Shown here: positions 54,426 to 56,216 of the stretch, in pieces
Position numbering within the stretch: the first letter of the stretch is position 1
Layout of the letters: each line of letters begins with the position of its first letter
Assembly: GCA_964016885.1 (NCBI GenBank)
Contig: OZ024748.1
Location: 60,078,001-60,142,000 of the forward strand
Reading direction: 5' to 3'
Source: Eledone cirrhosa
Taxonomy: Eukaryota
Length of the DNA: 64,000 nt
The notes under the pieces: model-generated
What the model was told of the DNA's origin: nothing
The model's input: the letters and a program-made list of their open reading frames with translations, nothing else
Database searches by the model: none
Translations under genes and position numbers: made by a program

Positions 54426-54757
54426 TATAAATATATATATATAAATATATAAATATAAATATATAATATATATATATATAAATATACATATATGTATAAA
54501 TATAAATATGTATATATATAAATATATAAATATAAATATATAATATATATATATATAAATATACATATATATATATATAAATATAAATATGTATATATAT
54601 ATATTTATATAAATATATATATAAATATAAATATATATATAAAAATATATATATATTAATATAAATATATATAAATATATAAATAAATATATATAAATAT
54701 ATATATATATATATAAAAGAGAAATAGGATTTCGCTTCAAGCTTAGGTTATACAATA

Positions 54758-55630
54758 TTAGCAGTGGTACCCGGCGTTCCACGGGATAAGGTATTTTGGA
54801 AGGCGGGCCGCCAACAGACCTAATAGTGGAAAAACTGCATGTCTGGACAATATGTAAAGAAAATAAACGAATACTCTGATGGCTGGATAATCATTAAGAT
54901 TTTCCTCGATAAAGCAGGAAAAATGCACGTTTTCACCTAATGCGGGCCTTAGGGGAACAAGAAAATGAATTTTTTTTATGTGCATAATATACCTTGAAAT
55001 TTCGGGAAAATTGGTCTCCAAAAAGCCCTAAGAAGCAAAAAAAATGAAGTTTTTCACCTAATGCGAGCCCTAGGCCATAAAAAAGTTGGATTTTCTTTGC
55101 TCACGGTATGAAGAAGAGAGTGACTAATACATAGTTACAATTTCAAGGAAATCGTTGTGAGGTAACTCTTAAAAAAAAACCTAAAACGCTTAAAAACGGA
55201 TAATTCGGACCCTAGGATATCAAAAGTTAAATTTATTTATGTGCTCAACACTCCCTGAAACATAAGTAATACACATGTAAAGTTTGAAAATACTCGGTTG
55301 GGTATTTCTCGAATTTTAGGGATTCAAACTCACAGACGCACACACAGAGACAGACATCCTCAGTGAAGTGACGTAATGCAGACAGATATTATAAGGGCGT
55401 GACATTATATGTATGTATCTATCTAAAAAGAGAAAGACTAATAATTATAGAGATAGATTGCTAAATCGCCTAATGTGGTCCCTAGGGCATGGAAAATTTG
55501 CTCAGAACACTCCCTGAAACATAATTATTACATGTGTAAAGTTTGAAAACAGTCTGTTGAGTGGTTCTCGAGTTTTAGGGATTCAACTCACACACACACA
55601 GACAGGCATCCTCAGTTTTATATATATAGA
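54758..55630 (-). mobile_element. Non-autonomous Helitron
   Basis: Minus strand starts TC(tatatatataaaa) and ends with hairpin cccgtggaacgccggg then CTAA (CTAG-like). Inserted between A and T with no TSD; internal duplication ~55245-55365 vs 55503-55615. Confidence 0.8.
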
Positions 55631-56216
55631 TGTATAAATATTTCGTATCTCCAAAGAAATACGGTTTTAGGAAGCCGTAGCTATGCAAACACCGGGGGCC
55701 AAACGCCCTCTAGTGATGTCCAGTAGAAGCAAGGGGGACAACCGTCTATGCATTTCAGGCTTAACTGGCCTTCGTCAGGACGGTCCCTCCCACCGCTTGC
55801 GACTGATGGACTAGAAGACAGGCGAGAATATATACTTTTCTCGTCTGTGTAAATAAGGTGATTAATCTCATTTGCATATGGAACTGCATAACTTGGCTCA
55901 ACTTATAATAAAAAAGAAATGTGATTTCACTTCAAGCATAGCTTTATACAATATGTATAAATATTTTGTATCTGCAAAGAAATATGGTTTTAAGAAGCCG
56001 TAGCTATGCAAATATGCGTATATATTCTCGGCTATCTTCTAGTCCAGCAGTCGCAAGCGGTGGGAGGGACCGTTCGGACGAAGGCCAGTTAAACCTGAAA
56101 TACATATACGTTTGTCCCTCTTGCCTCTGCTGGACATCACCAGAGGCGTTAGCCCCGGTGTTTGCATAGCTACGGCTTCCTAAAACCGTATTTCTTTGGA
56201 GATACGAAATATTTAT
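55631..56216. mobile_element. Family I: full 323-bp unit, start of next tandem unit, then inverted copy
   Basis: tgtataaatattt..gtatct at 55631 and 55954; 56020-56216 is inverted. Confidence 0.88.
55741..55784 (-). ncRNA. Canonical-core minimal type I HHR
   Basis: accgtc-CTGACGA-aggc(cagttaa)gcct-GAA-atgcat-A-gacggt; all stems perfect. Confidence 0.92.

Follow-up and report, generated by a model that had tools for sequence, protein, structure and literature searches.

A hammerhead-bearing 323-nt repeat family in Eledone cirrhosa with Penelope-type insertion footprints, a probable PLE-mobilised retrozyme

Results

Anatomy of the insertion

We study a short repeat that occupies positions 54712-56217 of a window of 64,000 nucleotides from Eledone cirrhosa (contig OZ024748.1, positions 60,078,001 to 60,142,000; the window is this whole stretch, and its coordinates count from its first letter). 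Unit positions (u) are numbered along the minus strand, which is the sense strand, such that u1 is 55953 and u323 is 55631. The features at the locus, together with the other family members in the window, are as follows.

54712-54757, minus strand: PLE-type 46-nt 'tail' (u1-u46), which closes the long arm at its 3' end and runs into (TA)n
54758-55630, minus strand: 873-bp non-autonomous Helitron-type insertion, a later passenger, judged by its termini and the restored junction
55631-55953, minus strand: complete 323-nt unit, 3.7% divergence from the family consensus
55741-55784, minus strand: type I hammerhead motif, read from the sequence and from covariation
55778-55772, 55771-55757 and 55753-55748, minus strand: core, stem II and palindrome ATGCAT of that hammerhead
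55954-56012, minus strand: 5'-truncated upstream repeat (u265-u323), which completes a 428-nt arm
56018-56217, plus strand: tailless inverted arm (u119-u321) that ends in (TA)n, with a decayed hammerhead at 56069-56112
31387-31707, minus strand: second copy of the family within the window, at 92% identity and with an intact motif
26520-26765, plus strand: third, more decayed copy, 81% identical
35745-35865, plus strand: fragment, likely of the older sister family Ib, 75-77% identical

In sense order, the locus leads from (TA)n into the inverted arm, which runs from u321 to u119 (56217-56018), then through a short filler sequence, u265-u323 (56012-55954), the complete unit (55953-55631), the 873-bp Helitron-type passenger and u1-u46 (54757-54712) back into (TA)n. 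The original prediction, a 323-bp head-to-tail unit and retrozyme candidate, had the unit at 55631-55953 followed by the start of a second one, and this is what we find (59 nt, 55954-56012, 93% identity); likewise, with the Helitron (54758-55630) removed there are two unit junctions, the restored one matching 55947-55963. What had been taken for the end of a preceding unit beyond the Helitron is, in sense terms, the 46-nt 3' tail only. The locus therefore amounts to 1.3 units in tandem with one usable hammerhead motif. It was also correctly predicted to hold no ORF: with both strands considered, ATG ORFs in the family consensus reach 42 aa at most.

The passenger at 54758-55630 has a 5' TC and a 3' hairpin followed by CTAA, and sits between the A and the T of the u323|u1 junction; from these termini we take it to be of Helitron type. 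Detection by motif alone yields six Helitron-type insertions at unit boundaries, all six at the same A|T site of u323|u1 and in the same orientation (window 54758-55630, L010, L132, L173 and, twice, L137). Such boundary insertions are present in 5 of the 163 loci screened, with none at 26 other AT sites. The target u323|u1 lies inside a small hairpin, TATACA-TAT-TGTATA.

A weak hammerhead motif in each unit

The motif lies where it was predicted, at 55741-55784 on the minus strand, with the canonical core CTGACGA. Read along that strand, it consists of stem I (ACCGTC/GACGGT), the core, stem II (AGGC/GCCT with a 7-nt loop), GAAA and TGCA-TA, and the predicted cleavage site is 55747|55746 with the triplet AUA. 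Helix I (6 bp) and helix II (4 bp) are both canonical, and in helix III one A-U pair closes a loop formed by the palindromic UGCA. To call this a perfect hammerhead, as had been done, overstates the case: one A-U pair with a palindromic UGCA is the weak, dimer-dependent type, salamander versions of which cleave well only as a dimer (PMC7229834; PMC4209133). By analogy, the one-pair helix III and its palindrome make it likely that cleavage would need a dimer here too. The outer pairings proposed to extend stem I are kept in 97.7% of cells over 16 aligned copies, but two substitutions break them in the window copy. A search of Rfam gives no hammerhead match at the gathering score, nor at E<=10; folding of the unit gives z = -4.5 against 100 shuffles.

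Among 99 full units the core is intact in 72, and it is no better conserved than the rest of the unit among family I copies, as is expected of dead copies. At the window locus the ribozyme of the inverted arm has decayed, so that there is one intact motif, only one per strand, and the predicted release of monomers by double cleavage is not possible there. Two complete motifs on one strand are found in only 3 of 81 sampled loci. We conclude that the copy at 55631-55953 is most likely a dead product, and probably inert.

A dispersed family with few arrays

A 24-mer of the unit has 933 exact matches in the 3.0-Gb assembly (control, 0), and a DNA search gives 2,507 candidates, 40 of which were scored and are 93-95% identical. 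The 99 full units show a mean divergence of 4.4% from one consensus; from this divergence and the 933 matches we estimate a family of ~2,700 copies, dispersed and mostly in (TA)n. As an unselected set we use the 86 loci from the first 100 listed 24-mer matches, all on contig C1, from which 5 duplicates were dropped; the remaining 81 loci, chosen by the 24-mer alone, hold 144 arms of at least 30 nt.

A search of the genome for longer tandem arrays, proposed with the original prediction, returns 27 pattern matches for dimers and, for trimers, one match genome-wide, which is an old, diverged array of 11 units. Head-to-tail repeats with at least two ribozymes are thus present in the family, though not at the window locus. 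The 11-unit array (L174:2631-5932, contig C2, ~83.92 Mb), the sole long one found, is locally amplified with nested duplications. We reject it as a master source: its units lie 5.6-9.9% from the consensus, and a u175 variant present in 10 of the 11 is outside the 30 commonest variants of the dispersed copies. A homogeneous master array was not found in the assembly.

Insertion footprints of Penelope type

Arms on both strands are present in 52 of the 81 unselected loci, and of the 144 arms 46 are longer than one unit and 104 cross the predicted cut site. The 3' ends of these arms are at u321-323 or close to u46, a spacing of 46 nt. Over all samples, 82 of 94 tailed ends and 77 of 106 untailed ones run on into (TA)n; the TA-like ends of the unit itself inflate this count. 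We collected 84 inversion joints and classified the 60 with both outer ends intact (24 dropped): 55 of these inverted pairs join one tailed to one untailed arm (P=1e-11), and the same rule is followed by 33 of 37 pairs in the unselected set (P=1e-6). Arms overlap by at least 1 nt at 58 of the 84 joints, meet flush at 9 and are separated by a gap at 17; the overlaps resemble those of twin priming in L1.

The two arms of one locus also resemble each other in their variants. Concordance of subfamily variants is 90% between arms of a locus versus 17% between loci, measured at 13 sites picked after the data had been seen, and with all sites except homopolymer runs and unit ends, shared variants amount to 28% within loci versus 6%. 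This sharing indicates that both arms derive from one source.

PLE insertions are recognised by partial tandems, an inverted arm and a one-sided tail (PMC8557442), and the tail has been described as the stretch that separates two internal sites of RT start (PMC11167929). The family shows all three features in a (TA)n target, and its pairs of one tailed and one untailed arm match the PLE tail and the two RT start sites as described in those papers. The original prediction had posed 'retrozyme' and 'PLE pLTR' as alternatives; given insertions with full PLE anatomy, the better description is a PLE-mobilised retrozyme, and we hold with high confidence that the family is a non-autonomous element of this kind.

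Candidate helper elements

A fragment of a PLE that is very abundant and has Hydra-type motifs lies in the window at 10004-11052 (minus strand); full ORFs of this PLE, 713 aa in length, are present at L175-L177. This ORF fragment has 76,787 candidate matches in the genome, and the intact 713-aa ORFs carry the Hydra-type motifs RWR, DKT and CxCX5C; a Pfam search of the PLE ORFs gave no match. A younger PLE family in the same genome has copies that are 98-100% identical.

The search for a linked PLE ORF, which had likewise been proposed, finds that none of the four sampled PLE families (A, B, C and D) ends in the unit, and with the unit as pLTR in none of them all four are rejected as the autonomous partner. 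The unit is absent from 33 of 33 family A loci and, the query loci aside, is present in none of the 24 loci of family B and none of the 19 of family C; among 30 loci of family D, none but the query has it directly downstream. It has no significant similarity to the pLTRs of families A, B and C or to the other hammerhead families of the window, and, having no ORF, it lacks the RT and GIY-YIG ORF between pLTRs that marks autonomous EN+ PLEs. PLE ORF fragments lie near 10 of 144 loci, one of them abutting in sense, and the two that were traced belong to families with other pLTRs.

Chimeric joins of the unit to other PLE or hammerhead families, in sense or head to head, are seen at L035, L017, L056, L057 and L244. 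They are possibly template switches and could be a hint of shared machinery, nested insertions being an alternative. L035 and L244, considered as loci of an autonomous partner, are best read as chimeras or neighbours. Hammerhead-like motifs of other families lie in the window at 24041 (+), 24595 (-), 30901 (-), 31073 (+), 35917 (-) and 36097 (+), and the pair 30901/31073 is the pLTR of PLE family B.

An older sister family

Family Ib, an older sister of family I with the same insertion anatomy, has a unit of ~340 nt and 56 exact pattern matches (a first search pattern gave one). Relative to family I, double-sided changes are seen in 3 of the 4 pairs of stem II and in one of stem I, a covariation that represents two haplotypes, not many events, with Ib rows picked by their stem II pattern. 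The hammerhead triplet of Ib is AUC. Read from these sequences, the fold is kept by compensatory change between successive families, which argues that the ribozyme mattered to the source.

Read-through and stalling

We ask of the 124 arms with intact 3' ends (20 dropped) where copying stopped. One of the 103 arms that reach the cut site stops there (u204-212; 3.9 expected), and ~215 crossings of the cut site carry 2 indel events. The copied strand passes the ribozyme cut site and the unit junction seamlessly, so the template was continuous there, either a ligated circle or uncleaved RNA. Over u204-263, stops take 18 of 113 arms on the first pass versus 13 of 20 on the second (P=1.5e-5), and the stopping hazard goes up about fourfold after 270-390 nt, that is, once about one unit has been copied. 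Copies of PLE family A reach 3.2 kb in a set selected for the ORF, and a PLE enzyme of such a kind can therefore copy far longer templates. Late stalling is what a circle would predict, since the enzyme would meet its own cDNA.

At lengths over one unit, a log-rank test rejects a fixed template 5' end shared by all arms (P=8e-5). For that set, the exact offset of 46 nt that a circle would give is rejected too (P=0.009; P=0.053 when further loci are added), and a change-point likelihood does not prefer the circle (32-36% of bootstraps in its favour). Stops cluster at u247-267 (21 versus 11 expected), where a transcript may start and the enzyme need not have paused, and a linear transcript starting near u250-265 would also cap arm lengths. 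An initial comparison of tailed and untailed arms (P=0.0065; 0.54 with the offset) was discarded, its groups having been conditioned unequally, and the test that replaced it is less favourable to the circle. Genomic tandems contain every junction that a circle has, so divergent RT-PCR, which had been suggested as a check, is not diagnostic by itself.

Discussion

A model of insertion and its alternatives

Drawing on these footprints, we outline how a copy may arise. A source transcript with two ribozymes would self-cleave through a dimer formed by the palindromic helix III, and the 323-nt monomer would then be ligated. A PLE endonuclease, probably of the abundant (TA)n-targeting Hydra type, would nick both target strands, RT would begin at internal points, u323 for one strand and u46 for the other, and the two cDNAs would be joined by microhomology; on a circle, the enzyme would stall soon after meeting its own cDNA. 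On the strength of the copies in the assembly we lean, by a little, towards an RNA circle as the template, and we give the same slight preference to the account as a whole, in which a PLE-mobilised animal non-LTR retrozyme would be copied via a 323-nt circle from two internal RT starts. Weighing against that account are a ribozyme core that does not stand out from the unit in conservation, covariation limited to two haplotypes, and a search of four PLE families that gave no autonomous partner. Somewhat more tentative is the idea that the copies are a fossil record of rolling-circle RT, with a Hydra-type PLE enzyme that would prime at both nicked strands of the target, from two positions on a ribozyme-made 323-nt circle that lie 46 nt from each other, pass the ligated cut site and stall after about one turn; within that same tentative reading, the template may have been a pair of circles held together by the helix III palindrome.

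The same non-autonomous PLE parasite might instead have been copied from linear RNA that was transcribed at partial-tandem or dimer loci and left uncleaved, in which case the ribozyme would be dispensable for insertion and the length limit would be set by the position of the transcript start. We regard this as rather unlikely, though it has several points to recommend it: uncleaved RNA fits the seamless read-through equally well, dimers are present in the genome, 9 of the 10 tailed arms reaching 361 nt stop by 400 nt, near u247-286, and for a PLE studied in vitro, from anole, uncleaved RNA is reported as the main template, with hammerhead-dead mutants inserting normally (PMC11167929). It is opposed by the untailed arms, which pass u247-286 more often (10 of 15), by the difference between tailed and untailed arms at equal template position (the log-rank P=8e-5), by the missing homogeneous master array, and by the ribozyme fold preserved across successive families, a sign that it mattered to the source.

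A template of cleaved linear monomers, with RT jumping from end to end, would account for arms that start at u207 (L170, unselected set) or u208 (L013, selected set); we give it very little credence, because 5' ends do not pile up at the cut site and indels there (0.0009 per site) are below the unit median (0.0026). It is also improbable, if less so, that the copies stem from an unsampled or extinct autonomous PLE, as its truncated 3' ends (pLTRs). Such a PLE would explain the insertion anatomy, the PLE ORF fragment joined in sense directly to the unit at L035 and L244 is consistent with it, and the four PLE families sampled are four of probably many; however, at u1 the arms continue with u323 of the same short unit and not with an ORF (46 of 144 exceeding one unit), the unit is not carried by other copies of the sampled ORF families (A 0/33, B 0/24, C 0/19), and the free 5' flanks have no common extension.

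Comparison with known systems

By every feature testable here in sequence, the element belongs to the animal non-LTR retrozymes. There is a canonical type I hammerhead motif per unit, and the description as non-coding, ~150-450 bp and without LTR features fits, judged on the 323-nt length and the 42-aa longest ORF; mussel retrozymes are 350-390 bp and those of axolotl 330/350 bp (Cervera and de la Pena 2020, PMC7229834). The original reading as a retrozyme is supported for the family (non-coding, with dimers, an 11-unit array, compensatory stems and no sampled pLTR) but not for the window locus. As described in PMC7229834, animal non-LTR retrozymes share with this family a non-coding, GC-poor unit of 150-450 bp, a type I hammerhead with a 6-bp helix I and a 4-bp helix II, a highly paired predicted circle, thousands of copies and coexisting PLEs, and HHR_Amex1 shares the one-pair helix III with a palindromic tetraloop. 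Unlike those retrozymes, the present element is known from genomic copies alone, arrays are nearly absent (one in the assembly), and the copies lie dispersed in (TA)n as partial tandems that carry inverted arms and tails.

On the PLE side, the Hydra clade of EN+ PLEs has the same partial tandem, inverted 5'-truncated arm, one-end tail and (TA)n target (Craig et al. 2021, PMC8557442), and anole Poseidon the same internal RT initiation at two start points (Frangieh et al. 2024, PMC11167929); EN+ PLEs differ in a tail of 30-40 nt versus 46 and a repeat of ~3 kb versus 323 nt, the unit being without an ORF. Li, Clavereau and Pollet (bioRxiv 10.64898/2026.07.22.740005) propose that hammerhead repeats depend on PLE machinery and that retrozymes of the non-LTR type are PLE derivatives without autonomy, and they describe monomer-rich families; PLE dependence and abundant monomers are points of likeness. 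The argument of that preprint draws on co-occurrence and on homology of pLTRs, for the most part in vertebrates, and local amplification is the mode it favours, whereas we find no pLTR homology and argue from insertion footprints. Circular templates were proposed in 2014 and 2020 (PMC4209133, PMC7229834). In the literature we found no report of a cephalopod retrozyme, although the supplement of PMC7229834 may list one, and no report of twin priming with circular templates in PLEs. The element class is already known; what is new is the host group and a set of insertion footprints that can be counted.

With so short a unit, each insertion records where copying began and where it stopped, so the differing predictions of circle and linear models can be counted over ~2,700 copies. 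Direct tests are possible both for the rule of one tail per insertion and for the increase in stalling at about one unit length. If the rolling-circle reading is true, the copies would give evidence from the genome for the circular intermediate that has long been proposed, in a parasite that persists with neither a master array nor pLTR homology to its helper.

Other features of the window

LINE RT fragments lie at 6201-7766 (+) and 8026-9134 (+), with PF00078 and PF13966 in their homologues; the only named animal homologues of this protein are from Argonauta hians. We take 57166-57952 (-) to be remnants of a mariner-like transposase. A weak tRNA-like match at 58776-58839 (-) is probably the head of a SINE.
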